From assembly GCA_964484445.1 (NCBI GenBank), contig CAZAFY010000001.1, forward strand, positions 1-29,305: 29,305 nt of DNA. The letters are read 5' to 3'. Below are positions 1 to 27,637 of the stretch, in pieces; within the stretch, counting starts at the first letter, position 1; every line of letters starts with the position of its first letter. The DNA comes from an uncultured Eubacteriales bacterium. GTDB lineage: Bacteria > Bacillota > JAAYKD01. The notes beneath the pieces are model-generated. The model searched no databases, had not been told where the DNA came from, and was given only the letters and a program-made list of their open reading frames with translations. Position numbers and translations under genes: made by a program.

Positions 1-1361
1 ATCATGGTCAGTTCGTATAATTGTTGAATCGGGACCCCACGTCGCAAAGCGGTAAGCAAGTGGAACAAGCGCAAATCATCGCCATAGTGGATCCGTTCTA
101 AAAGGAAATCCGTCTCCAGTTTTTCACTTTCGGGTGCTCTGACCGCAGAATAACCTTGTTCCATGGAACGCACTGCTTTTTGCATTGCTTCCGGAAGATT
201 CCGGCCAATTGCCATGACTTCACCGGTGGATTTCATTTGAGTGTTCAATTGGCGGTTTGCAACTCTGAATTTATCAAACGGCCATCGGGGAACTTTGGCT
301 ACGATATAATCGATGACCGGCTCAAAACAAGCACTGGTGCGACCTGTGACCGGGTTGACAATCTCATCTAACGTGTATCCTAAAGCTATTAGGCTAGCGA
401 TACGGGCAATGGGGTAACCGGTCGCTTTAGAGGCTAAGGCAGACGAGCGACTAACCCGTGGATTGACTTCAATTACATAATATTGCTGACTTTGTGGGTC
501 CAAAGCAAACTGGACATTACAACCGCCTTCAATCCCTAAATGACGAATAATATTGAGTGCTGCTGTTCTCATCATCTGATAATCGCTGTCGTTCAAGGTT
601 TGGGTAGGTGCCACAACAATGGAATCACCGGTATGAATGCCCAAAGGATCCAAGTTTTCCATGGAGCAAATGGCAATGCAATTGTTATTGGCATCGCGCA
701 TAACTTCGAATTCGATTTCTTTCCAACCCTTTAAGGATCTTTCGATCAGGCATTGTTGAATCGGACTCATCTTCAAACCGATCGGTAGCAACTCACGTAA
801 TTCTGCTTCGTTATCACAGAAACCACCACCGGTACCACCCAATGTAAAGGCCGGACGAACCACAAGGGGATATCCAATCTCTTCTGCTAAAGGAATCGCC
901 GATTCTAGATCAGTAACTGTAAAGCTATTTAAAACCGGTTCGTTGATGCTTTCCATAGCATTTTTAAACAATTGACGGTCTTCACTGCGCTCAATGGAAT
1001 CTAAGGGTGTGCCTAACAGTTCTACATTGAATTTTTGCAGTATCCCTTTTTGCCCCAACGTCAGTGCCATATTCAATCCAATTTGGCCACCTAAGGTAGG
1101 TAAGATGCCATCGGGACGCTCTTTTTCGATGATTTTTGTTACGATTTCAGGGGTTATGGGTTCTAAGTATGTTTGATACGCCATTTCCTTATCGGTCATG
1201 ATCGTCGCCGGATTCGAGTTGACTAAGATGACTTGAACCCCTTCATCTTGCAACACGCGGCAAGCTTGGGTTCCGGCATAGTCGAATTCGGCTGCCTGAC
1301 CAATCACAATAGGACCGGAACCGATGACTAAAATCTTCTTCAGATACGATTTTTTTGGCAT
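1..1361 (-). CDS. carB: Carbamoyl-phosphate synthase large subunit, N-terminal part (truncated by left window edge; absent from ORF track)
   Basis: Manual translation from ATG at 1361 gives [34 protein letters not shown]...[10 protein letters not shown]...[24 protein letters not shown], hallmark CarB motifs; starts 2 nt after the carA stop. Confidence 0.97.
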
Positions 1362-2434: not shown

Positions 2435-3729
2435 CAAATTCGCTCTTCCCTTCTGTATCGAACTTGTCCTTCGACCAAAGTGCAAATCGGCCACCCTTTT
2501 AACGACCAACCGGTATAGGGTGTATTTTTGCCCTTCGATCGAAACGTTTTCGGGTCGACAATACGCTCTTCCTCGAGATCCAAAATCGTGATATTCGCAA
2601 GCGCTCCCTTTGCTATGGTTCGAGTAGGGAGACCGTAAACCGAGGCGGGTCCTTGTGATAATGCTTGAATCGCTTCATTTAGTGAAAGCTCGCCACGGCT
2701 AACCAAACGATCTAAAACCAAAGCTACAGCCGTTTCTAAACCGGAAATCCCAAAAGCTGCATAATCAAATTCCATACGCTTGTCATCAAGGTGATGCGGT
2801 GCATGATCTGTAACGATTGCCGAAATGACTCCCTCACGCACCCCTTGAACTAACGCTTTACGATCTGTTTCTGAACGTAATGGCGGATTGATTTTGGTAT
2901 TGGTATCGTAATTACTTTGTTCTACGATCTCGTCAGTCAAGATCAAATGATGCACGGTCACTTCGCCGGTGGCTTGAATGCCCTCTTCTTGGGCTTGTTG
3001 CAGCAAGCGCACTGAATTCGCGGTTGAGAGGTGACAAAGGTGGATTTTTCCGCTGACCAATTTAGCAAGTTGCAGATCGCGATATGCCATAATCTCCTCC
3101 GCTGCCGAAGGGATCCCTTTTAGCCCTAAACGGGTCGAAACCGCACCGTGATGCATCACTCTGCCTTCGCTCAAATATGGGTCTTCTAAGTGACTGGCTA
3201 CGGGTAAGTTAAACATGGAACTGTATTCCAAAGCATTACGCATCACTTCGCCATTGATCACCGGCTTGCCATCATCGGAGACTCCAACTGCTCCGCAAGC
3301 TCGCAATTCCCCCATCTCCGTTAATTCCTCACCCTGTTCTCCTTTGGTAATGGATGCTAACGGATACACTTTCGCTGCTCCCACTTGCTCGGCGCGACGT
3401 TGGATAAATTCAACTAAACTGCGGTTATCACAGATTGGTTTGGTATTGGGCATGCAACAAACTGCAGTGAACCCTCCGGCAATCGCGGCTTTTGCACCGC
3501 TTTCAATATCTTCTTTATATTCCAGACCCGGTTCACGCAAATGAACATGGGCATCGATAAAACCCGGAGCAATGATCTTGCCACGGCAGTCGATCAACTC
3601 CGCCTCTTGATCCTCAATATTCAAAGCAACTTCAACAATGCGGTCATCCTCGATCAGAACATCGGAAACCCGATCCAGTTTCAAGGCAGGGTCTACTACC
3701 CTTCCGCCTTTTAAGAGTATTTTAGTCAT
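2434..3729 (-). CDS. pyrC: Dihydroorotase (type I)
   Basis: [39 protein letters not shown]. Start ATG 3729 with AGGAGGTG RBS, overlapping the pyrB stop. Confidence 0.96.
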
Positions 3730-4849: not shown

Positions 4850-4893
4850 GCATAAATTTCGAGTAGAAACCTAAGGGAATAATGGATTCACGC

Positions 4894-4922
4894 TTGACAA
4901 AAATTTGTGCTTCCCTTACAAT
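4894..4922 (+). promoter_or_regulatory. Sigma-A promoter of rubrerythrin
   Basis: TTGACA-17 nt-TACAAT. Confidence 0.8.
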
Positions 4923-4928
4923 AATTAG

Positions 4929-4943
4929 TGATAACTATTCTCA
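4929..4943. promoter_or_regulatory. Fur/PerR-family operator candidate
   Basis: TGATAACTATTCTCA matches 12 of 14 defined positions of TGATAATnATTATCA, just downstream of the -10 of a peroxide-defence gene. Confidence 0.6.
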
Positions 4944-4962
4944 AAAACAAGGAGGAACGACA

Positions 4963-5502
4963 ATGGAATTGAAAGGTTCAAAGACCGAACAAAATTTACA
5001 AACTGCGTTTGCAGGCGAATCCATGGCGACCAACAAGTATTCCTACTATGCTTCTCAAGCCAAAAAAGATGGCTTCGTCCAAATCTCCGAAATCTTTGCC
5101 GAAACATCCGGCAACGAACGCGAACATGCCAAACTGTGGTTCAAATTACTACATAATGGTGGCGTTCCCGATACTCTAACCAACTTAAAAGATGCTGCCG
5201 CCGGCGAAAATTATGAATGGACCGATATGTACGCCGGTTTTGCAAAGACCGCCAAAGAAGAAGGCTTTGCAAAAATTGCTTACTTGTTTGAAGGCGTTGC
5301 CAATATTGAAAAGCACCACGAAGAACGCTATTTAAAATTAGCAAAGAATATTGAAGATGCAAGCGTCTTCAAAAAGAATGAAGTCGTAGCTTGGCATTGC
5401 ATCAACTGTGGCCACATTGTCAAAGCAGTCAATGCACCTGCATTATGTCCGGTATGTGATCATCCTCAGGCTTTCTTCAAAGTTCACTCTGCCAATTACT
5501 AA
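4963..5502 (+). CDS. rbr: Rubrerythrin
   Basis: [12 protein letters not shown]...AFAGES, di-iron E/ExxH motifs ([14 protein letters not shown]), C-terminal rubredoxin CINC...CPVC. Start ATG 4963 with GGAGG RBS. Confidence 0.95.
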
Positions 5503-6581: not shown

Positions 6582-6595
6582 TCCGTCAGAATGAT

Positions 6596-6613
6596 TGGTG
6601 AAAAAAAGCACAA
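6596..6613. promoter_or_regulatory. Rex operator candidate 3 (downstream of the -10)
   Basis: TGGTGAAAAAAAGCACAA, 11/14 match, followed by a further TTCACAA half-site. Confidence 0.5.
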
Positions 6614-6642
6614 TTTTGATTCACAAAAGGAGGATATTTTCA

Positions 6643-7125
6643 ATGGCTTGTTCTAGCCTTCAGTCCAAATTTCAAGAATTGGATCATTATATTGACAACT
6701 TATCCATTTCCGATAAAGGCTCTGCCTTGATTCCGGTTCTTCACAAAGCACAAACGATTTTCGGTTATCTCCCCCAAGATGTCCAGGCTCATATTGCGGA
6801 ACGTTTAGACGTTTCTACTGCAAAAGTCTATGGTGTGGTCAGCTTTTATACCTTCTTTACCATGGAACCCCGCGGGAAATTCAACATCAGCGTCTGCTTG
6901 GGAACTGCTTGCTTTGTTGGTGGAGCCGATGCCGTGCTGAAAGAATTTGAAAAAGTTCTTCAGATCAAAAGTGGTGAAACCACACCGGATTTCAAATTTT
7001 CCATCATCCCGGTTCGCTGCGTAGGCGCTTGCAGCTTAGCTCCGATCGTTATGATCAACGACAAAGTGTATCCCAGGGTGAAGGTCAGCGAAGTAGCTCA
7101 TATTCTTGCAGAGTATGAAGAGTAG
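6643..7125 (+). CDS. hydC: NAD-linked [FeFe]-hydrogenase gamma subunit (NuoE-like, 2Fe-2S)
   Basis: LIPVLHKAQ..FGYLP, VYGVVSFY, CLGTAC...CVGAC. Start ATG 6643 after AGGAGG. Confidence 0.92.
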   Translation: MACSSLQSKFQELDHYIDNLSISDKGSALIPVLHKAQTIFGYLPQDVQAHIAERLDVSTAKVYGVVSFYTFFTMEPRGKFNISVCLGTACFVGGADAVLKEFEKVLQIKSGETTPDFKFSIIPVRCVGACSLAPIVMINDKVYPRVKVSEVAHILAEYEE

Positions 7126-7136
7126 GAGGAAGTAGC

Positions 7137-9053
7137 ATGGAACGAATATTAACTTTTGATCAATTAAAACAATTCTATGAGTCCGTTAGATACCAAACCA
7201 ATATGCGCTTACATCCTCTGAATCAAGCACCTGATTTTGTGCAATTACCGGAAGCGTATCGTAAAGAAACTAAAATGCGTCATGTTATGGTCTGTGCCGA
7301 TACCGGCTGTGCTGCTTCACATTCCGTTGGCATAGCCGATAAACTCGAGCAAGCAATTGCACGCTACGGCTTACAAGATCAAGTGATTGTGGTAAAAACC
7401 GGTTGTTTTGGTTTGTGTTCCCAAGGCCCGATCGCGGTCATTCATCCTGAACGGATCATGTACACACAACTTAAAGCCGAACATGTCGAAGAAATCGTGC
7501 GTGATCATTTGCGCGACGGTCATTACGTTGAACACCTCTTATTGGGTGCCCGCGAGGGTGCTCCGACTACACAATACGATAACGTTGATTTTTTCAGAAA
7601 CCAAGTCCGCATTGCCACCCGAAACTGCGGTGTAATCAATCCCGCTAGTCTGGAAGAATATATTTCACAAAAAGGCTACTTAGCCTTAGGAAAATGCATT
7701 CACGAAATGACACCCGACCAAGTCGTGGAAACCGTGAAACAATCCGGTTTGCGCGGTCGAGGCGGGGCAGGATTTCCCACCGGTCTAAAATGGGGCTTTA
7801 CTGCCATTGAAAAAGAAGATCAAAAGTATGTCTGCTGTAACGCCGACGAAGGCGACCCCGGTGCATTTATGGATCGTTCTGTCCTTGAAGGGGATCCCCA
7901 TTCTGTATTAGAAGCCATGGCTATTGCTGGTTATGCAATTGGTGCAAACATGGGTTTCATCTATATTCGTGCGGAATACCCCAGTGCAATCCGTCGCCTG
8001 CTCTCCTCTATTGAACAAGCCAAAGCAGCCGGCTTATTGGGAGCCAATATCATGGGAAGTACCTTCTCTTTTGATATTGAACTCCGATTAGGTGCCGGAG
8101 CCTTTGTTTGCGGTGAGGAAACCGCACTAATCGCTTCTGTGGAAGGAAATCGAGGCGAGCCTCGCAATAAACCACCTTACCCTGCTTCCAAAGGAATCTA
8201 CGGCAAACCCACTGTCATCAATAATGTTGAAACCTTAGCAAATATTTGCCCGATCATCCTTAACGGACCCGAATGGTTCCGTTCAATTGGCACCGAAAGA
8301 AGTCCCGGTACCAAGGTTTTTGCCCTGGCCGGAAAAGTAAACAACGTTGGGCTCATTGAGGTTCCCATGGGTACTACCCTACGGGAAATTATATATGAGA
8401 TCGGCGGGGGTATCGTTGACAACAAACAACTTAAGGCAGTGCAAACAGGCGGTCCCTCCGGTGGTTGCATTCCAGCTCGCTACCTCGATACCCCAATCGA
8501 TTACGAATCCCTCCAGGTCATAGGTACCATGATGGGTTCCGGTGGTATGATCGTTTTAGATGAAACCGCTTGTATGGTCAATATTGCCAAGTTTTACTTG
8601 GAGTTCACAGTAGAAGAATCCTGTGGCAAATGCACTCCCTGTCGCTATGGCAACCACTATCTCCTCGATATCATGAACAAAATCACCAGCGGTAAAGGGG
8701 AACGTGAGGATTTAGATCGCCTTTTCAATTTGGGCGAAACCATTAAGCAAGCTTCTCTTTGTGGCTTAGGACAATCTTCACCGAATCCGGTTTTAAGTAC
8801 AATGCGTTATTTCCGCGATGAGTACTTAGCCCATATCGACGAAAAACGTTGTCCTGCCGGTGTTTGCAGCGATTTACTTCAATACCATATCGTGCCGGAG
8901 CTCTGTATCGGTTGTACGATTTGTGCTAAGAACTGCCCTGTGCAATGCATCAGCGGAAGCCTTCGCGAACCTCATGTGATCAATCAAGAAGCTTGCATCA
9001 AATGCGGCGTCTGCTTTACCAAATGCCCTAAGAAGGCAATCATCAGAAAGTAG
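7137..9053 (+). CDS. hydB: NAD-linked [FeFe]-hydrogenase beta subunit (NuoF-like, FMN/NADH)
   Basis: N-terminal thioredoxin-like 2Fe-2S (CADTGC, GCFGLC), GLRGRGGAGFPTG, NADEGDPGAFMDR, GAGAFVCGEET, ESCGKCTPCR, C-terminal 2x[4Fe-4S]. Confidence 0.94.
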   Translation: MERILTFDQLKQFYESVRYQTNMRLHPLNQAPDFVQLPEAYRKETKMRHVMVCADTGCAASHSVGIADKLEQAIARYGLQDQVIVVKTGCFGLCSQGPIAVIHPERIMYTQLKAEHVEEIVRDHLRDGHYVEHLLLGAREGAPTTQYDNVDFFRNQVRIATRNCGVINPASLEEYISQKGYLALGKCIHEMTPDQVVETVKQSGLRGRGGAGFPTGLKWGFTAIEKEDQKYVCCNADEGDPGAFMDRSVLEGDPHSVLEAMAIAGYAIGANMGFIYIRAEYPSAIRRLLSSIEQAKAAGLLGANIMGSTFSFDIELRLGAGAFVCGEETALIASVEGNRGEPRNKPPYPASKGIYGKPTVINNVETLANICPIILNGPEWFRSIGTERSPGTKVFALAGKVNNVGLIEVPMGTTLREIIYEIGGGIVDNKQLKAVQTGGPSGGCIPARYLDTPIDYESLQVIGTMMGSGGMIVLDETACMVNIAKFYLEFTVEESCGKCTPCRYGNHYLLDIMNKITSGKGEREDLDRLFNLGETIKQASLCGLGQSSPNPVLSTMRYFRDEYLAHIDEKRCPAGVCSDLLQYHIVPELCIGCTICAKNCPVQCISGSLREPHVINQEACIKCGVCFTKCPKKAIIRK

Positions 9054-9066
9054 GAGGTTTCACCCT

Positions 9067-10809
9067 ATGTCAACGGTCAATCTGAGTATCAATGGCTTGC
9101 CTGTTTCTGTGGAAGCCGGCACCACCATTTTGGATGCAGCAAAAACAGTGGGTATCAAGATTCCCTCCTTATGCTATCTGCATTTACCCGATGTCGATGT
9201 TGTTTGTAAAAGTTCTTCCTGTCGTGTATGTTTGGTTGAAATCGAAGGACGCCGCAATTTAGCACCTTCTTGCTCGACCACAGTCGTAGAAGGCATGATC
9301 GTCAAAGCCGATACTGCTCGTGCTGTAGATGCTCGAAAAACCATGTTAGAACTGATGCTTTCGAATCATCCTCACAATTGTTTATTCTGCAAACGGCGCG
9401 AATCCTGTGAACTCAAGGCGTTATCGGCAGAAATGGGAATCGATGAACTTCCCTTTCAGGCTCCGGTGCCGGAAGCAGATCTCGACACCTCGAACTTCTC
9501 CATTATTCGAGACACCTCAAAATGTATTTTATGCCGTCGTTGTGAGACTGTTTGTACCGAAGTTCAAACGATGGGCATTTACTCGGGCGTAAACCGAGGG
9601 TTCGATACTCGTATCGACACAGCGTTCCATACTCCTATGATGAGTACGGCTTGCACCTTCTGTGGACAATGCGTAGCTATTTGCCCCACAGCAGCTCTGA
9701 CCGAAGTCGACAATACTCCTGCCGTCTTCAAAGCTTTACGTGATCCAAAGAAAACAGTCATCGTTCAGACCGCTCCTGCGGTTCGTGTGGCTTTGGGTGA
9801 AGAATTGGGCTACCCAGTCGGCACCAATGTAACCGGAAAAATGGTCACCGCTTTGCGACGTTTAGGCTTTGACAAAGTTGTTGACACCGACTTTACTGCC
9901 GACTTGACGATTATTGAAGAAGCTACTGAACTGATTCATCGCATCCAGAACAACGGCGTATTACCCATGATGACCAGCTGTTGTCCGGCTTGGATCAAAT
10001 TTTTAGAACATAAATTCCCGCATCTATTACCCCATTTATCGACTTGCAAATCTCCTCATGAGATGTTGGGAGCAGTAATCAAGGCGTTCTATGCTGAAAA
10101 GTTAAACGTCAAACTTGATGATCTCATCGTAGTCTCTGTCATGCCTTGTTTGGCGAAGAAATACGAGAACAATCGTCCCGAGCTAAGCGATGGAAAATAT
10201 CCCGATGTCGACATCGTAATTTCTACCCGCGAATTGGGAGCCATGATCAAACATTCCGGCCTACAATTCAAGAGTTTGCCGGACGCTGATTTCGACCGAC
10301 CCTTTGGCGAAAGTTCCGGTGCCTCCGTCATCTTTGGTACGACCGGTGGCGTAATGGAAGCTGCTTTACGTACTGCTTATGAAACCCTCACCGGCAGAAC
10401 ATTGGATCATGTTGAATTCGAAGAAGTGCGTGGCTTTGAAGGGATCCGATCCGGTAATGTTATGATCGGTGATTTAGAAGTTAAAGTAGCCATTGCTCAT
10501 ACCCTCAGAAATGCTCGTAAGCTCATGGAAGAGGTCGAAAATGGCACTGCTGATTATCATTTCATTGAAGTTATGGCTTGTCCGGGTGGATGCATTGGTG
10601 GAGGTGGTCAACCTTATCATCATGGAGAAATGGACACCTTGCGCAAACGGGCTGCTGCTCTCTACAGCGCAGATGAAGCCAAAGTCATCCGTCGTTCTCA
10701 TGAGAATCCCGATATCACGCGGTTGTATCAAGACTTCCTAGGAGAACCGAATGGACATCTAGCTCACGAATTGTTACATACCCACTACGTCAAAAGAAGT
10801 AAACACTAA
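9067..10809 (+). CDS. hydA: [FeFe]-hydrogenase catalytic alpha subunit (group A, multimeric)
   Basis: H-cluster motifs TSCCPAW, MPCLAKKYE, EVMACPGGCIGGGGQP; N-terminal 2Fe-2S, His-ligated 4Fe-4S (HPHNCLFC) and 2x[4Fe-4S]. Confidence 0.96.
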   Translation: MSTVNLSINGLPVSVEAGTTILDAAKTVGIKIPSLCYLHLPDVDVVCKSSSCRVCLVEIEGRRNLAPSCSTTVVEGMIVKADTARAVDARKTMLELMLSNHPHNCLFCKRRESCELKALSAEMGIDELPFQAPVPEADLDTSNFSIIRDTSKCILCRRCETVCTEVQTMGIYSGVNRGFDTRIDTAFHTPMMSTACTFCGQCVAICPTAALTEVDNTPAVFKALRDPKKTVIVQTAPAVRVALGEELGYPVGTNVTGKMVTALRRLGFDKVVDTDFTADLTIIEEATELIHRIQNNGVLPMMTSCCPAWIKFLEHKFPHLLPHLSTCKSPHEMLGAVIKAFYAEKLNVKLDDLIVVSVMPCLAKKYENNRPELSDGKYPDVDIVISTRELGAMIKHSGLQFKSLPDADFDRPFGESSGASVIFGTTGGVMEAALRTAYETLTGRTLDHVEFEEVRGFEGIRSGNVMIGDLEVKVAIAHTLRNARKLMEEVENGTADYHFIEVMACPGGCIGGGGQPYHHGEMDTLRKRAAALYSADEAKVIRRSHENPDITRLYQDFLGEPNGHLAHELLHTHYVKRSKH

Positions 10810-12619: not shown

Positions 12620-13891
12620 ATGTCAGTCAGAGCAATCGTTGGAGCACAATGGGGAGACGAGGGCAAGGGTAAAATTGTCGATCTTTTGGCACAAGAGGCC
12701 GATATCGTAGTTCGATTTCAGGGAGGGGCGAATGCGGGACACACCGTAGTCAATTCGTATGGCAAGTTTGCTTTACATCTGATTCCCTGTGGAATCTTTA
12801 ATCCCAAAGTCACCAACATTATTGGTACCGGTACCGTCGTAGACCCGGCTGGCTTAGTAACCGAAATTTCACAATTACATCAAGCCGGTATTTCTACAAA
12901 GCAGTTGAAGATATCAAATCGTGCTCATTTATCGATTCCTCTTTACGGTTATTTAGACCGTTTGTTGGAATTGGCCCGTGGTAACTCTGCTCAAGGATCC
13001 ACCCTAAGAGGGATCGCACCGGCATATGCTGCAAAAAGTTTACGGGTTGGCTTGCAAATGGGCAGCATGCTCAACCGAGAACGTTTTATGCAATCTCTGC
13101 GTGACATTTTGGTCAGTGGCAATCAACTGATTGAAGCGGTCTTCAAAGAGAAAGCAATCGACATTGATGCAACTTTAATTGAATTTGAAGAATACCTACG
13201 AGTCTTATCGCCGTATATCTGTGATACGCTTCCAATTTTACACCAAGCTGCCAAAGAAGATAAAAATATACTCTTGGAAGGTCAATTAGGGGTGATGCGC
13301 GATCTCGATTGGGGAATTTATCCTTATAGCACCTCTTCCAACCCCACTTCCGGTGGAGCTGCTTCCGGCAGCGGTTTACCTCCGCATCTAATCAGTAGAG
13401 TAACCGGTATAGTAAAGGCTTTCTCAACAGCCGTAGGCGCCGGCCCTTTCCCTACTGAACTCAAAGATGAAGTAGGTTCGTACTTACGCGACTTTGGCGA
13501 AGAATTTGGTGCCACAACCGGTAGACCACGGCGTTGCGGTTGGCTTGACTTAAATGCTCTCCGTTATGCTGCCCAACTCAATGGGTTCACCGATGTCGCT
13601 ATTACAAAATTAGATACTTTGGATCAATTAGAGCATCTCAAAGTTTGTACGCATTATCGACTCGATGGTCAAATCGTGGAAGGAATGCCCTTAGCAGAAG
13701 ACTTAGAACGTGTGGAACCGGTCTACGTTGAAATGCCCGGCTGGAACTGTTCTACCCAGCAAGTGAGAAGTTGGCAAGATCTACCCAAAGAAACCAAAGC
13801 CTATGTAGAATTGATCGAAGAAGCCTGTGGGGTCAAAGCCTCTTGGCTTTCGGTTGGTCCCTCGCGAGAAGCCACCTTCCGTCGTAGTTAA
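12620..13891 (+). CDS. purA: Adenylosuccinate synthetase family protein, divergent paralog
   Basis: GAQWGDEGKGK, GGANAGHT, EFGATTGRPRRCGWLD, TKLD, SVGP; but EGQLG replaces EGAQG and STAVG replaces STRVG. Start ATG 12620 (the ORF-track extension covers the promoter region). Family is certain, function is not. Confidence 0.85.
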   Translation: MSVRAIVGAQWGDEGKGKIVDLLAQEADIVVRFQGGANAGHTVVNSYGKFALHLIPCGIFNPKVTNIIGTGTVVDPAGLVTEISQLHQAGISTKQLKISNRAHLSIPLYGYLDRLLELARGNSAQGSTLRGIAPAYAAKSLRVGLQMGSMLNRERFMQSLRDILVSGNQLIEAVFKEKAIDIDATLIEFEEYLRVLSPYICDTLPILHQAAKEDKNILLEGQLGVMRDLDWGIYPYSTSSNPTSGGAASGSGLPPHLISRVTGIVKAFSTAVGAGPFPTELKDEVGSYLRDFGEEFGATTGRPRRCGWLDLNALRYAAQLNGFTDVAITKLDTLDQLEHLKVCTHYRLDGQIVEGMPLAEDLERVEPVYVEMPGWNCSTQQVRSWQDLPKETKAYVELIEEACGVKASWLSVGPSREATFRRS

Positions 13892-13900
13892 AAAAGAAGC

Positions 13901-13929
13901 TTGAATTTAGTTTCATTTCAAGGTATACT
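13901..13929 (+). promoter_or_regulatory. Sigma-A promoter candidate for the OsmC-like gene
   Basis: TTGAAT-17 nt-TATACT, 29 nt before ATG 13959. Confidence 0.7.
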
Positions 13930-13958
13930 TAAAGTATCAACTACAAGGAGGTTTTTCC

Positions 13959-14330
13959 ATGGCCTACATGTCTTTTTCTCTCACGCCACAAGGCACCTTG
14001 ATTCAAATGGAAGGCAAAGCCGACCAACTCGTCAACAAAGAAAACTTTGGCCCAACCGATCACTTCTTTGCCGGGATCGGCGCCTGAATGTATGCTGGAA
14101 TTGCGTCTTACGGACGTAAATTCGAGCTTCCGGTGGAAGCTATTACCATGACCCTAGATACTACAAAAAACGAAACCACTCGTTTGATCAACAAGATGGA
14201 TTTCCAAGTCAAATTCCCCGAAGGGTTCCCTCCTCAACATCTGCAATCGATCTTGAAAAACATGAACGCTTGTTATGTTAAAAAACATTTGTATGATCCT
14301 CCTGAAGTCACAGTGACGGTCATAGAATAA
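13959..14330 (+). CDS. OsmC/Ohr-family protein, probable selenoprotein (TGA 14085-14087 = Sec43; 123 aa)
   Basis: AAGGAGG RBS before ATG 13959; MAYMSF...FGPTDHFFAGIGA-[TGA]-MYAGI... continues in frame into ORF 14088-14330. The TGA occupies the first conserved OsmC Cys; the second Cys is in NACYVKKHL. Confidence 0.8.
14094..14141 (+). promoter_or_regulatory. Candidate SECIS hairpin(s) of the OsmC-like gene
   Basis: Hairpin GCT-G-GAATTGCGTC-TTACG-GACGTAAATTC-G-AGC (loop at +21 from UGA) and overlapping AGCTTCC-GGT-GGAAGCT (loop at +45). Folded by eye. Confidence 0.5.
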
Positions 14331-14339
14331 CAGATCAAT

Positions 14340-14393
14340 AAAAACCCCACCCTATACTTTTGAACGAATCAAGAGCATTGGGTGGGGTTTTTT
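14340..14393. terminator. Bidirectional terminator
   Basis: AAAAACCCCACCC...GGGTGGGGTTTTT with an inner CTTTTGA/TCAAGAG stem, between convergent genes. Confidence 0.8.
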
Positions 14394-14401
14394 ATCTCTC
14401 A

Positions 14402-14815
14402 TTATTTAAACAACCGGATGATCAAGAAACTAATGGTTGCGGTTGCCCCGCTCAAAAAAGTTCCCCAGATCAAATCGATGATTGTGATCATAATCGGCCA
14501 ATCGCGTATCGTAGCCAAATTGGTCAGATCATAGGTAGCATAAGTGACAAAGCCAAAGAACATACCGGTAAACAAAGCAACCTGCCAACTCTGCTTTGCT
14601 AAAGCCGGATTGATTACAAAAAACAACATACCCACAATAAAAATGGCGTAGAAGATGAAGGCAGCTGCAAAATTGGTTTTCGGCGCCATGAGGTAGCCTA
14701 ATTTTTCAGTATACAAGTTTTTAGCTACAAACCCCAACCAAATCAGATCGATGACTAAAAAAACGCCAAAGGAAATGAAGAAATTGCGGAAATCCGCACC
14801 ACTGATCGAACTCAT
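14402..14815 (-). CDS. DUF2177-like membrane protein
   Basis: IDLIWLG, FY..FIVG, FG..TYATYDLTN.AT...W......IDLIWGT motifs. Start ATG 14815 (AAGGTG RBS). Confidence 0.8.
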   Translation of the reverse strand: MSSISGADFRNFFISFGVFLVIDLIWLGFVAKNLYTEKLGYLMAPKTNFAAAFIFYAIFIVGMLFFVINPALAKQSWQVALFTGMFFGFVTYATYDLTNLATIRDWPIMITIIDLIWGTFLSGATATISFLIIRLFK

Positions 14816-14834
14816 GGTCACACCTTCTCTTTGC

Positions 14835-15590
14835 TTACTTTTTGGGGAACCAGGGGATGAAGACAGGGGTTTTCTCGGCATATTCTTTGAATCCGGGGCG
14901 TTTCATCATAGAACGTTCTAACATTGGCACTCCGGAAACAAAGACCAATAAATACGTGATCACTGCAGGACTGATAATCACCCAAAACGGAGCTCCGGAA
15001 GCGCGAGATAGTACATAAATCCCCCACCACATCACGGACTCCCCAAAATAGTTGGGATGACGTGTATATTTCCATAGACCTTCGGTCATGATTTTACCCT
15101 TATTTTCAGGATTTTCCTTAAAGGCTTCCAACTGCCAATCACCTACTGCTTCAAAATAGAAGCCGATCACCCAAATAAGACCTCCCAGCCCGGTCAAAGA
15201 TGGATTCCATAGATTCGCGTCTGTTCCGGCAAATATGATGCCGAGAGCGACGACTAACATAAAGAAAGCTTGAGTCATGTAAACTTGCAGAAAAGCTCGA
15301 GGAACAACCATACTTCCCCATTCTTTACGCCATTGCGCATAGCGGAAATCTTCGGGCTTCCCCCAGTTGCGACGAATGATATGATAAAACAAACGCAATC
15401 CCCAAATGGATACCATGAGGGTCATCACCGTTACCGGAATCGGCACCGGCCTGCGGGTCAACCAAGCATACCAAGAAATAATCACAAAACCGATCCCCCA
15501 ACCGATATCAACAATGGAATTATTCTTGATCACGGTACCTACGATAAAGAAGAGGATAAAGTATATAAAAATCAGTGCAACAACATCCAT
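14835..15590 (-). CDS. DUF1295 / steroid 5-alpha-reductase-like membrane protein
   Basis: NNSIVDIGWG, WGLRL, EDFRYAQWR, EAVGDWQL..FK, GLWKYTRHPNYFGE..WWG, SGVPMLE. Confidence 0.85.
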   Translation of the reverse strand: MDVVALIFIYFILFFIVGTVIKNNSIVDIGWGIGFVIISWYAWLTRRPVPIPVTVMTLMVSIWGLRLFYHIIRRNWGKPEDFRYAQWRKEWGSMVVPRAFLQVYMTQAFFMLVVALGIIFAGTDANLWNPSLTGLGGLIWVIGFYFEAVGDWQLEAFKENPENKGKIMTEGLWKYTRHPNYFGESVMWWGIYVLSRASGAPFWVIISPAVITYLLVFVSGVPMLERSMMKRPGFKEYAEKTPVFIPWFPKK

Positions 15591-15602
15591 GCCTTCAACT
15601 CC

Positions 15603-17399
15603 TTAAACTTTTATAAAACAAACCGCAACACTGCCCGGACCGGAATGAATAGCAACCACCGAGGAGATTTCTGTGATAAATGCCGGTTCTTTCCCGATCT
15701 TGCTGCGTAAAAGATCTTTATATTCCAATGCCAATGCCAGATTATCCGCATGAACAATACAGTAATCTTCGATACCACCGCTTTGAAGTGCTTCATCCAC
15801 CAGTTTCATGATTCGAGAGGTGATCCCCTTTTGACTGAATGCAGCACCAAAGGCGATTCCTTTGCCGGCTTCATCAATCGACATGATCGGACGAACTCCT
15901 AACATATTCCCGATTTTGCCAACCGTATTGGGAACCCTTCCCCCCTTCGCTGCAAATTCCAGCGTATTCAAACAGACGTATATTTTGCTTTTGGCAATGC
16001 GTTCTTGAACAAGAGTTGCGATTTGATCATGGTCCAACCCCTGACTTCGCGCTTCCACAGCAGCTTTAACAATCAATCCTTGCGCACCGCTGTTGAGCAG
16101 ACTGTCAATGACTGTAATCCTCTTCCCCATTGCCTGTAACTGGTTCGCTTCTTTCTCCAAAGCTGCATGCGTACCGCTCATCTTGGAAGAAACCGTGATC
16201 ACAATCAGGCTCTCGAATTGATCTGCAGCCCATTGCAGATATTGGCTGATTCTTCCCGGTTCGGGTTGTGAACTGGTAGGGTGATGTGCGGTAGTTTTCA
16301 TGCGCTGGAAAAGCTGTTGTAAGCGAATGGTGGTTTTATCTAGATAAATCAGGTCGTCCAGCAACAACCCCAAAGGCAAAACCGGAATTTGTTGTGCCAA
16401 AACTAATTCACCGGAAAGATCAGCTATGGAATCCGTTAAAATCCCGATCGGTGATATTCTCTGATTGATGATTCGATTTTGCAGTTCCATATCATCAACA
16501 ATCTGATCAATGATCCTTCCCCATTTGCGCAATCTTTCCACAACCAATTCCGGTGTATTGGTATGGATATGAATTTTTAGTTTTCGTTCCATGGTTGTAA
16601 CAAGTAGGGAATCGCCAAATTCACGCAAATCAGCTTTGACCCGATCTACAAAGCCGGAGTCCGACATTCCTGTTTCAATCTCCACTGTTATGGTCGTGCA
16701 GTAACGAAACAAGATCTTTTCGACCTGATGATGATCAACATTTTCAACCACCAATTCGTCCTCTACCGGTTGGCTCACATGCAACGATTCACTGGCAAGA
16801 AAGCGATTGATCCCTTGAACGAAGAACAAGAAGCCTGCCGCACCAGAATCGACAACATTGTTCTTCCGTAATAATTCCAATTGCTCCTTGGTGTGCTCCA
16901 ACGACTGGGCTACGATTTGCTGGGAGTCCCGTAAAAATTCCAGGAACCCCTGATAATGCTGATGATTCTGAACCAGGAAAGTAGCCCAATCTTTGATGAC
17001 ACTGATGATCGTTCCCTCTACCGGTTGATCAATAGCTTGGTACATCCCTTTTACAGCTCGATTCGCAATTAAGGCAAAATCAGATAACCCTATTTTCTCA
17101 AAAGGTCCGGCTTCAACCGCCATGGCATTGACATAGGCAGCAAAAATGATCCCTGAATTTCCCCTAGCATTGGCCAAGCCGGTTTGCGAAATTTCATGCA
17201 GCATGCTATTAAAAGCCGTCTTGCGACTGGTTTTATCGACCATGGCCCGTAAAGTAACCACTAAATTGCTACCGGTATCGCCGTCGGCAACCGGAAAAAC
17301 ATTGATTGAATTCAAGTATTTACGATGCTCATGAATTTCTTCGGCCCCATATTTAAACCAACCGTATAAATCGGTTCTGGTAATAAATTGTCTGTTCAT
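15603..17399 (-). CDS. DAK2 (FakA-like) - DegV (FakB-like) fusion, putative fatty acid kinase
   Basis: NVFPVADGDTGSNL and ARGNSG (DAK2); YCT...HIHT middle domain; SSQP, SSKMSGT, GGR, HSGPG (DegV). Start ATG 17399 preferred. Confidence 0.88.
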   Translation of the reverse strand: MNRQFITRTDLYGWFKYGAEEIHEHRKYLNSINVFPVADGDTGSNLVVTLRAMVDKTSRKTAFNSMLHEISQTGLANARGNSGIIFAAYVNAMAVEAGPFEKIGLSDFALIANRAVKGMYQAIDQPVEGTIISVIKDWATFLVQNHQHYQGFLEFLRDSQQIVAQSLEHTKEQLELLRKNNVVDSGAAGFLFFVQGINRFLASESLHVSQPVEDELVVENVDHHQVEKILFRYCTTITVEIETGMSDSGFVDRVKADLREFGDSLLVTTMERKLKIHIHTNTPELVVERLRKWGRIIDQIVDDMELQNRIINQRISPIGILTDSIADLSGELVLAQQIPVLPLGLLLDDLIYLDKTTIRLQQLFQRMKTTAHHPTSSQPEPGRISQYLQWAADQFESLIVITVSSKMSGTHAALEKEANQLQAMGKRITVIDSLLNSGAQGLIVKAAVEARSQGLDHDQIATLVQERIAKSKIYVCLNTLEFAAKGGRVPNTVGKIGNMLGVRPIMSIDEAGKGIAFGAAFSQKGITSRIMKLVDEALQSGGIEDYCIVHADNLALALEYKDLLRSKIGKEPAFITEISSVVAIHSGPGSVAVCFIKV

Positions 17400-17576
17400 T
17401 TTACACCCCACAATGAAAATTTGTAACGATTTCTTAGTAGGAATAGTTCTCCATAGCAATTAAAATTCCTTTACCAAGGGAGAAACTTTAGAAAAAAACA
17501 ACTTGAAAAAATTGTTATTTTCTGGTATTCTCTATTTGTTCATTTTTTCGTTAACTTTGTACGAAAGGGGTACTGT

Positions 17577-26705: not shown

Positions 26706-27176
26706 TTATAGAGTTTGAAGTTGGTCCAAAATCTCAAAGATCTCTTCACTCTCGGGAATATCTTGCATCGAATTACCGTAGTGAGCAAAGCGAAGGACCC
26801 CTTGCTTATCGATCAACATTTGAGCAGGCATCCGACCTAATTTTAGCAATTTGACTTCTTGACCATAAAGATTCAGAACCTGTTTTTGCTCGTCGGGTAA
26901 GCCGATGAAGGGGAGTTGGTTCTTCTCCCAGTAGTTTTTAAAAGCGGAGGCATTTTCGGGGCCAAGCACAACAATGACGGTATCTCTTTTAGTAAATTGC
27001 TCGAATTCTTGACGCAACTGCGCCATATGCTTTTGGCAAAAGGGTCAGATAAATCCCCGGTTAAACACCACTAAGATATGGGACTTCCCTTGGTACTTTG
27101 AGAGTTCAAATAATTCTCCGTTGAAATCGGGTAAAGAAAAGTTTGGGGCCTGCATGTTTACGTCTAATCTTGCCAT
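26706..27176 (-). CDS. Peroxiredoxin-like (AhpC/TSA, PRX_like2) protein, probable selenoprotein with UxxC (TGA 27047-27045 = Sec44; 156 aa)
   Basis: AGGAG RBS before ATG 27176; MARLDVNMQAPNFSLPDFNG..FELSKYQGK.HILVVFNRGFI-[TGA]-PFCQKHMAQ... is in frame with ORF 26706-27026. The TGA is the first position of the CxxC motif. Confidence 0.88.
27010..27025 (-). promoter_or_regulatory. Candidate bacterial SECIS
   Basis: Minus strand UGGCGC-AGUU-GCGUCA; the apical loop starts 26 nt after UGA and has G as its second base followed by U. Confidence 0.65.
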
Positions 27177-27187
27177 ACCATTCACTC

Positions 27188-27637
27188 CTAACTTTTTTCT
27201 GGTTCCTCGTTTTTTGCAACGATTTGATTCAAGGATGCACTGATCGGTTCACGGGTGAATTCTTGTCCGACCAGTTCCTGGATCACAATTTCACCTACGA
27301 AGAGGATTCTGCTTTCTTCTAAATGCCCAGCTACGGCTTGTTTATCATCGGATACAACAACGTGAACATGCGGCTGCCCCTCGGCAATAAATCCTTGGAG
27401 TGCGACCACCTCTAAAGGCACATCATTCCATTCCGGATATACGAAGACCGGAGGTTGACTGACATTGATCGCTGTTTTCAAGCGACAATGATCGAAACTG
27501 GCAATTCCGGAAGCAATATAGCCGTTTTTTAGATCAGCTTGATCGATCACTAAACGTAGACTCTCCATAACATAATCTCCCGGGTTTAGTCGAACTACTA
27601 TGGTACGACCCGGTTTAGCTTGGTCATAAAATTTCAT
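27188..27637 (-). CDS. DUF296 / PPC-domain protein
   Basis: IVVRLNPGD, ASGIASF, LEVVALQGFI, PHVHVVVSD...VAGHL, EIVI. Start ATG 27637 (AGGAGG 8 nt upstream). Confidence 0.85.
   Translation of the reverse strand: MKFYDQAKPGRTIVVRLNPGDYVMESLRLVIDQADLKNGYIASGIASFDHCRLKTAINVSQPPVFVYPEWNDVPLEVVALQGFIAEGQPHVHVVVSDDKQAVAGHLEESRILFVGEIVIQELVGQEFTREPISASLNQIVAKNEEPEKS

Follow-up and report, generated by a model that had tools for sequence, protein, structure and literature searches.

Gene layout at the locus

Within a 29,305-nucleotide (nt) stretch of DNA from an uncultured Eubacteriales bacterium (contig CAZAFY010000001.1 of assembly GCA_964484445.1; hereafter the window), we examined a minus-strand gene that is predicted to encode a peroxiredoxin (Prx)-like selenoprotein. 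Its 156-codon frame contains only one in-frame TGA, at codon 44 and within the translated motif R-G-F-I-U-P-F-C, in which U stands for selenocysteine (Sec). The original prediction, made from the sequence alone, had recognised a full gene behind the 106-amino-acid (aa) fragment of the open reading frame (ORF) track, opened by a ribosome-binding site and an ATG at 27176 and carrying a single TGA at the first Cys of a CxxC motif. All of these features were present in the sequence, and Cys-type homologues have TGC or TGT at the position of the TGA. For this frame, the ORF list contains only the 106-aa piece and a 46-aa piece at 27045..27185 (Table 1).

Table 1. Features of the predicted selenoprotein gene and of a second TGA-interrupted gene in the window
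Feature	Position	Strand	Details and basis
Prx-like thiol:disulfide oxidoreductase selenoprotein gene (predicted)	26706..27176	minus	156 codons including Sec44; translation, Pfam, homologues
Shine-Dalgarno AGGAG	27189..27185	minus	8 nt 5' of the ATG; sequence
TAG stop of upstream PCC-domain gene	27190..27188		Overlaps the AGGAG of the selenoprotein gene
Start codon ATG	27176..27174	minus	Homologues begin at the equivalent Met (MARLD/MARVE)
UGA codon 44, predicted to be read as Sec, nucleophile of UxxC	27047..27045	minus	Conservation and Cys-type homologues
TGC, Cys47, putative partner (resolving) cysteine of UxxC	27038..27036	minus	TGC in 81/82, TGT in 1/82; conservation in the protein alignment at least 90%
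Core hairpin of the putative Sec insertion sequence (SECIS)	27008..27027	minus	Within codons H-M-A-Q-L-R-Q-E; RNAalifold consensus, pair counts
Outer U.G pair of hairpin	27027/27008	minus	
Hairpin 5' arm UGGCGC	27025..27020	minus	
Apical loop AGUU	27019..27016	minus	
Hairpin 3' arm GCGUCA	27015..27010	minus	
CGG, Arg115 of K-x-G-R-x-P	26832..26834	minus	Invariant in 27/27 full-length sequences
Stop TAA of selenoprotein gene	26708..26706	minus	
106-aa ORF as gene callers report it	26706..27026	minus	Artefact: begun at the next Met 3' of the UGA
OsmC-like TGA-interrupted gene	13959..14330	plus	123 codons; joined product reaches Pfam OsmC
In-frame TGA of OsmC-like gene	14085..14087	plus	Motif GIGA-U-MYAG; second Cys at residue 105
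Stem-loop after OsmC-like TGA	14094..14127	plus	-16.3 kcal/mol, z = -2.8
Terminator-like hairpin of OsmC-like gene	about 14345..14393		

Conservation of the TGA across homologues

Searching with the protein gave 1,653 relatives. Among those listed, most are fragments of 102-112 aa that cover only the C-terminal two-thirds of the protein, as expected of gene callers that restart at a Met after the stop. The JGI annotation calls pieces of 43 aa and 106 aa separately and names the fragments 'peroxiredoxin Q/BCP'. The expectation that standard gene callers would split or truncate the gene was therefore borne out. The 'full-length' database homologues mostly have Trp at the Sec column, with a few Cys and one Arg. 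This Trp is TGA in the DNA (for example, at 381..854 of locus L082), translated under genetic code 4 on a contig of about 1 kb. The public metagenome protein catalogues (ENA, Logan) likewise hold either a protein with Trp in the place of Sec (e.g., P0001), because short contigs were translated with code 4, or the C-terminal fragment alone.

Trp at this column is what a genome-wide reassignment of TGA to Trp or Gly (code 4 or 25) would produce, and it is found in most 'full-length' database homologues; however, it goes back to the code 4 translation of short contigs, and the carriers belong to ordinary code-11 phyla. The 28 genes of the window end in TAA (20), TAG (4) and TGA (4), and its Trp codons comprise 90 TGG. 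When all six frames were scanned for TGAs joining coding pieces, just two cases made sense, and each lies at a redox-Cys position. In the rest of the window TGA acts as a normal stop, and we regard reassignment as extremely improbable.

We confirmed 574 relatives in species-representative genomes and kept the best 80 for codon inspection. All 80 had TGA at the equivalent of codon 44. They come from at least nine phyla, including Chloroflexota, Bacillota, Actinomycetota, Acidobacteriota, Calditrichota and Spirochaetota; the deltaproteobacterial carriers include Syntrophaceae/Smithella, Desulfuromonadia-type bacteria (Desulfuromonas) and others. The pattern used for the locus search had been back-translated from an active site with Trp or Cys, and TGA could therefore not have been favoured. 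TGA also occupied this codon in 82 of the 82 sequences of our codon alignment, the check on homologues that had been proposed at the outset, and Cys took its place in true Cys-type homologues. A DNA pattern that accepted TGA, TGC or TGT before the conserved downstream sequence gave at least 121 matches in at least 120 stretches, and the matches listed had TGA in 121 out of 121 cases. A genuine Cys orthologue (P0002, TGC) was present in two independent assemblies (L083 and L084), and when the Cys-type motif was scanned for to completion, only ten true homologues with TGC or TGT at the Sec column emerged. Set against these 10 Cys forms, the counts among the best 80 relatives and the 121 listed matches indicate that the clade defined by NRGFxUPFC...HMAQLRQ...GRMPAQ is almost entirely of the Sec type.

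The segment upstream of the TGA is also maintained. Its 43 codons showed five synonymous and no nonsynonymous differences from the syntenic relative L081, and three and none, respectively, from L001; the region was free of stops in 196 out of 198 loci. This segment is under purifying selection. A TGA lies one substitution away from TGC or TGT, and gene callers do treat codon 44 as a stop, as would be the case for a Cys codon changed in a dead or mis-sequenced gene. The presence of the same TGA in independent assemblies and many phyla excludes, for practical purposes, a nonsense mutation, a pseudogene or an assembly error, and the selection upstream and the dedicated covarying hairpin downstream (see below) argue in the same direction. 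Recoding of the TGA as Sec in place of a nonsense mutation, as first proposed, accounts for these counts.

A covarying hairpin downstream of the TGA

The hairpin with an AGUU loop that had been predicted 26 nt downstream was found there, the first loop base being the 26th nt after the TGA. The 24-nt core hairpin had a folding energy of -8.1 kcal/mol, accounted for 77% of the ensemble and was more stable than expected (z = -3.0), with 2 out of 200 shuffled sequences folding as well. The published model of bacterial SECIS (bSECIS) elements has an apical loop of 3-9 nt with a G in its first two positions, usually followed by G or U, an upper stem of 4-16 bp, a distance of 16-37 nt between the UGA and the loop, and a minimum free energy of at most -7.5 kcal/mol (PMC13188914, Fig. 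2). The hairpin falls within this model throughout: its loop has 4 nt with G at position 2 followed by U, its stem has 6 bp, and the spacing is 25 nt. No Rfam family matched it, either in the whole window at the gathering score or in 26950..27100 at E <= 10.

Codon usage in the 82-sequence alignment revealed constraint at synonymous sites. Counted from the Sec codon, Ala+8 was GCG in 63 out of 63 sequences, Gln+9 was CAG in all 82 and Leu+10 was TTG in all 82, and only CGC or CGT was used for Arg+11. By contrast, the next Gln was written CAG in 34 and CAA in 30 sequences, and Arg-4 used six different codons. The freeze of synonymous sites thus appears to be confined to the hairpin codons.

RNAalifold recovered the hairpin helix from the alignment. 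By pair count, 98.4% of stem cells were paired, as against 26-57% in slid registers, and none of 500 shuffles reached the observed pairing or covariation. Compensatory changes occurred at the stem pairs 28-39 and 29-38, with G-C or G.U replaced by A-U in 19 sequences and C-G replaced by U-A in 16. In the one common variant, GCG...CGY (Ala...Arg) has become AUG...CAU (Met...His), so that two amino acids change jointly and the pairing is kept; the intermediates ACG...CGU and AUG...CGU likewise keep the stem paired. The hairpin was dissolved in the ten Cys-type homologues. One of these (L231) retains the peptide M-A-Q-L-R, written ATG GCC CAA CTG CGG, which gave no fold (z = +0.24), and others have MARLH, MDTLQ or MSRLQ in its place. 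These comparisons indicate that the hairpin is coupled to the TGA.

Could the nucleotide conservation reflect nothing but the amino acids H-M-A-Q-L-R-Q, with no RNA element involved? The peptide is indeed highly conserved, and three of the seven stem pairs are invariant and hence uninformative. However, synonymous sites are frozen here only, the main variant exchanges Ala for Met together with Arg for His while preserving the pairing, and Cys-type homologues either write MAQLR with stem-breaking codons or drop the peptide. Peptide conservation as the sole cause therefore has a negligible probability in our judgement. The alignment points instead to a SECIS element, which SelB would bind. Comparative support and the published model thus both agree with the original assignment of the hairpin. 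Across at least nine phyla the putative SECIS of the clade is nearly identical in nucleotide sequence, and it appears to constrain the protein's own sequence.

According to RNAalifold, alignment columns 13-15/21-23 could form a second, 3-bp mini-helix (UGC/GCA); as its pairs are invariant, the alignment neither supports nor refutes it. The third base of codon +5 (27030, codon 49, column 21), whose RNAalifold partner in this mini-helix is the C of the codon for Cys47, was G in 81 out of 82 Sec-type genes and in 6 out of 10 Cys forms, and the codon itself varied (AAG, CGG, GCG, AGG, TCG, GTG, GAG). This pattern suggests an additional nucleotide-level constraint at codon +5, 5' of the main hairpin.

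Fold and active site of the predicted protein

For profile searches, we used the protein with U edited to C. It matched Pfam AhpC-TSA (PF00578) with 76 bits against a cutoff of 26 (E = 3.2e-21; residues 7-130, profile positions 2-123 of 124) and Redoxin over its full length (66.6 bits, E = 2.7e-18). A full-length match to either family was seen only when the TGA was read through, and it bears out the thioredoxin/peroxiredoxin-fold product that had been anticipated. NCBIfam had no model that reached its cutoff. The best match was NF040769, SelL-related redox protein (72 bits against 120, residues 9-105 only), and the ResA model NF002854 scored 52.4 bits against 170. Annotation pipelines therefore miss the gene. 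The domain begins at residue 7 and leaves no room for a signal peptide or membrane anchor, so the protein is predicted to be cytoplasmic.

An AlphaFold2 model was built on the natural Cys orthologue P0002, which is 64% identical to the window protein (mean predicted local distance difference test [pLDDT] 86.6, predicted template modelling score [pTM] 0.84). In this model, residue 44 lies at the N-terminus of helix 45-56, right after strand 33-38; the N-terminus of that helix is the nucleophile position in thioredoxin-fold enzymes. The nearest structures were the bacterioferritin comigratory protein (BCP)/PrxQ enzymes Bcp4 and Bcp1, with template modelling (TM) scores of 0.87-0.89 and root-mean-square deviations of 2.2-2.3 Å, followed by ResA (TM 0.7-0.8). 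Sequence searches of the Protein Data Bank agreed with this ranking (phmmer 1e-11 for BCP/PrxQ).

The redox motif is U44-P-F-C47, with Sec as its N-terminal residue. The PxxxTxxC signature is not present: Val37 (-7) and Gly41 (-3) stand at its Pro and Thr positions, and N39-R40-G41-F42 is conserved instead. When aligned by phmmer with Sulfolobus solfataricus Bcp1, Arg115 adjoins the Arg of that protein at a place with gaps, and it is probably the counterpart of the peroxiredoxin active-site Arg. With a UxxC motif whose partner sits at +3, a Prx fold and no PxxxTxxC, we read the protein as a putative selenol/thiol (UxxC) oxidoreductase on a peroxiredoxin scaffold, with either a peroxide or a disulfide as its possible substrate.

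Comparison with known families

Prx-like selenoproteins were reportedly described by Kryukov & Gladyshev in 2004 and by Zhang et al. in 2005-2008. The 'Prx-like thiol:disulfide oxidoreductase' selenoproteins have the PF00578 domain with UxxC or UxxU and are 'predicted with high confidence'; their reference member is WP_010940744.1 of Geobacter sulfurreducens (PMC13188914). First reported in 2004 (PMC13188914, PMC1794560), the family occurs in Syntrophus and Geobacter, whose genomes also have SelD (PMC1794560), and 'Prx-like 1' in ocean metagenomes comprises 2,740 Cys homologues against 225 Sec forms (PMC2398784). The original statement that Sec versions of Prx-like proteins are known is thus documented in all three sources. 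The window gene resembles this family in its PF00578 domain, in UxxC with Sec first, in an in-frame UGA followed by a bacterial SECIS, and in anaerobic carriers, among them Syntrophus-type and Desulfuromonadales bacteria; the overlap of its carriers (Syntrophaceae, Desulfuromonas) with the reported lineages is suggestive only. Whereas the published ocean metagenome set is mostly of the Cys type, almost all members of the window gene's clade are of the Sec type. Domain, motif and SECIS are the grounds on which we assign the window gene to the Prx-like family.

BCP/PrxQ enzymes (S. solfataricus Bcp1, 3drn, and Bcp4, 3hjp) share the nucleophile at the same helix N-terminus and probably the invariant Arg (R115 here), but the window protein is 24-27% identical to them, lacks PxxxTxxC and has its partner Cys at +3 and not at +5. 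ResA/TlpA proteins (1st9, 1su9, 4nmu; 27-30% identity, TM 0.7-0.8) carry a CxxC-type motif at the same structural position. They are membrane-anchored, extracytoplasmic cytochrome-maturation factors, whereas the window protein has no room for an anchor and scores below the NF002854 cutoff. SelL-related proteins (NF040769) and eukaryotic selenoprotein L likewise combine a Prx-like fold with a dithiol or diselenol motif at the same site, but the match to the window protein, below cutoff and limited to the N-terminal two-thirds, does not make it a member. The peroxiredoxin PrxU from Eubacterium acidaminophilum (Sohling et al. 2001, as cited in PMC13188914) is an experimentally verified Sec protein with PF00578 and a TxxU motif. 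PrxU and the window protein have in common PF00578, a source among anaerobic Firmicutes and, as predicted here, Sec as the nucleophile. The window protein has UxxC without the Thr of TxxU and would therefore belong to a different subfamily.

A second TGA-interrupted gene in the window

The other sensible case from the six-frame scan is an OsmC-like gene within the unannotated gap 13891..14402, preceded by an AGGAGG ribosome-binding site. The joined protein, with U edited to C, scored 31.3 bits against the Pfam OsmC cutoff of 27.5, and its halves alone matched nothing. Only three database relatives were found (86-93% identical); their translations either show W in this column or begin with the Met that follows, and the TGA is kept. 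On a 436-kb syntenic contig, the gene is split into 42 aa and 80 aa at the same place. This candidate, too, reached no NCBIfam cutoff. Its score of 19 against 95 for 'OsmC-related (seleno)protein' suggests that it may represent a distinct OsmC-like Sec subfamily, with UxxA in contrast to the published UxxT. Independent of the Prx-like gene, the OsmC-like gene indirectly supports Sec decoding in this organism.

Genes for DUF2177, DUF1295 and a FakA-DegV fusion lie beside the OsmC-like gene (14402..17459). The window (contig GC content 44.8%) also contains, on the plus strand, a HydABC-type [FeFe] hydrogenase set (6595..10809; 2Fe-2S thioredoxin-like, NuoF-like and Fe-only large subunits) and a rubrerythrin gene (4882..5502), which fit a strict anaerobe with oxidative-stress defences.

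Variant homologues and gene neighbourhood

Several homologues differ from the common pattern. In one full-length homologue, P0009, the Sec/Cys column is occupied by Arg (NRGFF-R-PFC); this may be a CGA that arose from TGA, a variant without activity or an error. The Cys orthologue of L083 (3001..3471) and L084 (2975..3445) still has the intact hairpin sequence (ATG GCG CAG TTG CGC CAG), which suggests a very recent Sec-to-Cys conversion. Directly 5' of this Cys gene is a gene for a reverse transcriptase (RVT_1), and a DsbA-like gene is also close by. The 3.5-kb contig L089 (PKTO01000299.1, from a Clostridiales metagenome-assembled genome) has the UxxC and SECIS signature twice, at 259..293 and 3252..3286, 3 kb apart; the two copies appear to be tandem paralogues of the selenoprotein gene.

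In the window, genes for a PCC-domain protein and an amidohydrolase closely flank the selenoprotein gene, with gaps of 11 and 19 nt, and the same order is found in L081. Across 190 distinct loci, no recurrent neighbour exceeded 18% and no conserved redox partner was found. The commonest neighbours were DegV, a fatty-acid-binding family (35 loci), and DUF1295, a membrane family of steroid-reductase/ICMT-like type (31 loci), together with a small membrane protein, each below 20% and restricted to particular lineages; the DegV and DUF1295 loci were mostly from Chloroflexota (e.g., L092 and L050). The presence of DegV and DUF1295 beside Prx-like selenoprotein genes in other loci, and beside the OsmC-like candidate in the window, may hint, speculatively, at a connection with the metabolism of lipids or lipid hydroperoxides.

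Weighing Sec decoding against read-through

Several observations weigh against Sec decoding at this locus. Pfam revealed no selA, selB or selD among ORFs of at least 90 aa in the 29-kb window, and selC was likewise not found there, either by a tRNA scan (no tRNA) or by Rfam at the gathering score (no match); a scan of 260 retrieved loci likewise gave no tRNA-Sec. For the Prx-like family as a whole, selenium incorporation is only predicted and has no published experimental proof (PMC13188914). The folding check had a divided outcome: the core hairpin stood out from shuffled sequences, but the 71-nt fold after the TGA did not (z = 0.05), so that only the core hairpin and the comparative analysis are informative. 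The conserved part is this short core alone, and its energy is barely beyond the threshold of the bSECIS model. The compensatory changes in the stem may represent few evolutionary events, mostly within one Clostridia-type clade, in which case the covariation counts overstate the independent support. Finally, the enzymatic function is still generic because the neighbourhood names no reductase partner or substrate.

The machinery missing from the window and the predicted status of selenium incorporation, along with the Arg of P0009, are also what favours SECIS-independent read-through by a near-cognate Trp, Cys or Arg tRNA, or separate products of 43 aa and 106 aa, with the hairpin in another role such as ribosome pausing or mRNA stability. 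By contrast, the hairpin agrees with every feature of a SelB-type bSECIS, including the G-U of the loop and the 25-nt spacing, and it is tied to the TGA and lost in Cys forms. No Shine-Dalgarno sequence was found before the internal ATG of the 106-aa ORF, and that piece has neither beta1-beta3 nor the active site of the single-domain fold. A UxxC/CxxC motif would, moreover, be inactive if its nucleophile were replaced by Trp or Arg. We therefore consider read-through or separate products improbable, though less so than the other alternatives discussed above, and are highly confident that 26706..27176 is a genuine Sec-encoding gene.

Proposed mechanism and implications

We propose that the locus is one gene for a cytoplasmic redox protein of about 17 kDa with a peroxiredoxin fold and Sec as its nucleophile. 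The UGA at codon 44 would be recoded by the standard bacterial pathway, with SelB binding and selenium incorporation directed by the intragenic 6-bp hairpin, whose AGUU loop starts 25 nt 3' of the UGA. In the predicted fold, Sec44 would mark the N-terminal end of the first long helix, and Cys47 would follow after one turn (U-P-F-C). The pair would alternate between a selenol/thiol and a selenenylsulfide state as it reduces its substrate, a peroxide or a disulfide, and would presumably be re-reduced by a thioredoxin-type system.

A broader proposal, which we advance only tentatively and with more doubt than conviction, is that the clade is an almost obligate Sec branch whose 16-20-nt SECIS, identical in at least nine phyla, dictates the peptide M-A-Q-L-R (or M-M-Q-L-H). 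If true, the branch would reverse the usual excess of Cys over Sec forms, horizontal transfer would probably have spread gene and SECIS jointly, and the hairpin would act as a compact module for Sec insertion with broad SelB compatibility. Hundreds of species-representative genomes would then contain an unannotated selenoprotein.

For annotation, the gene is truncated, split or translated with Trp in this contig, in hundreds of species-representative genomes and in metagenome catalogues, and protein databases consequently lack the half of a redox enzyme that carries its active site. As a predicted selenoprotein, the family is in the catalogues already, and in that respect the find adds one member. 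Beyond the catalogue entry, it points to a Sec-dominated clade and a short SECIS that is nearly identical across phyla. The codon freeze, the covariation that changes amino acids and the decay in Cys forms would together show, with unusual clarity and in a natural setting, how a minimal bacterial SECIS behaves. The Sec-dominated clade would also be well suited to providing the Prx-like family with its first biochemical proof. Together with the OsmC-like gene, the Prx-like gene would identify this uncultured anaerobe of the Clostridia type as a bacterium that uses selenium and employs Sec in enzymes of oxidative stress or thiol redox chemistry.

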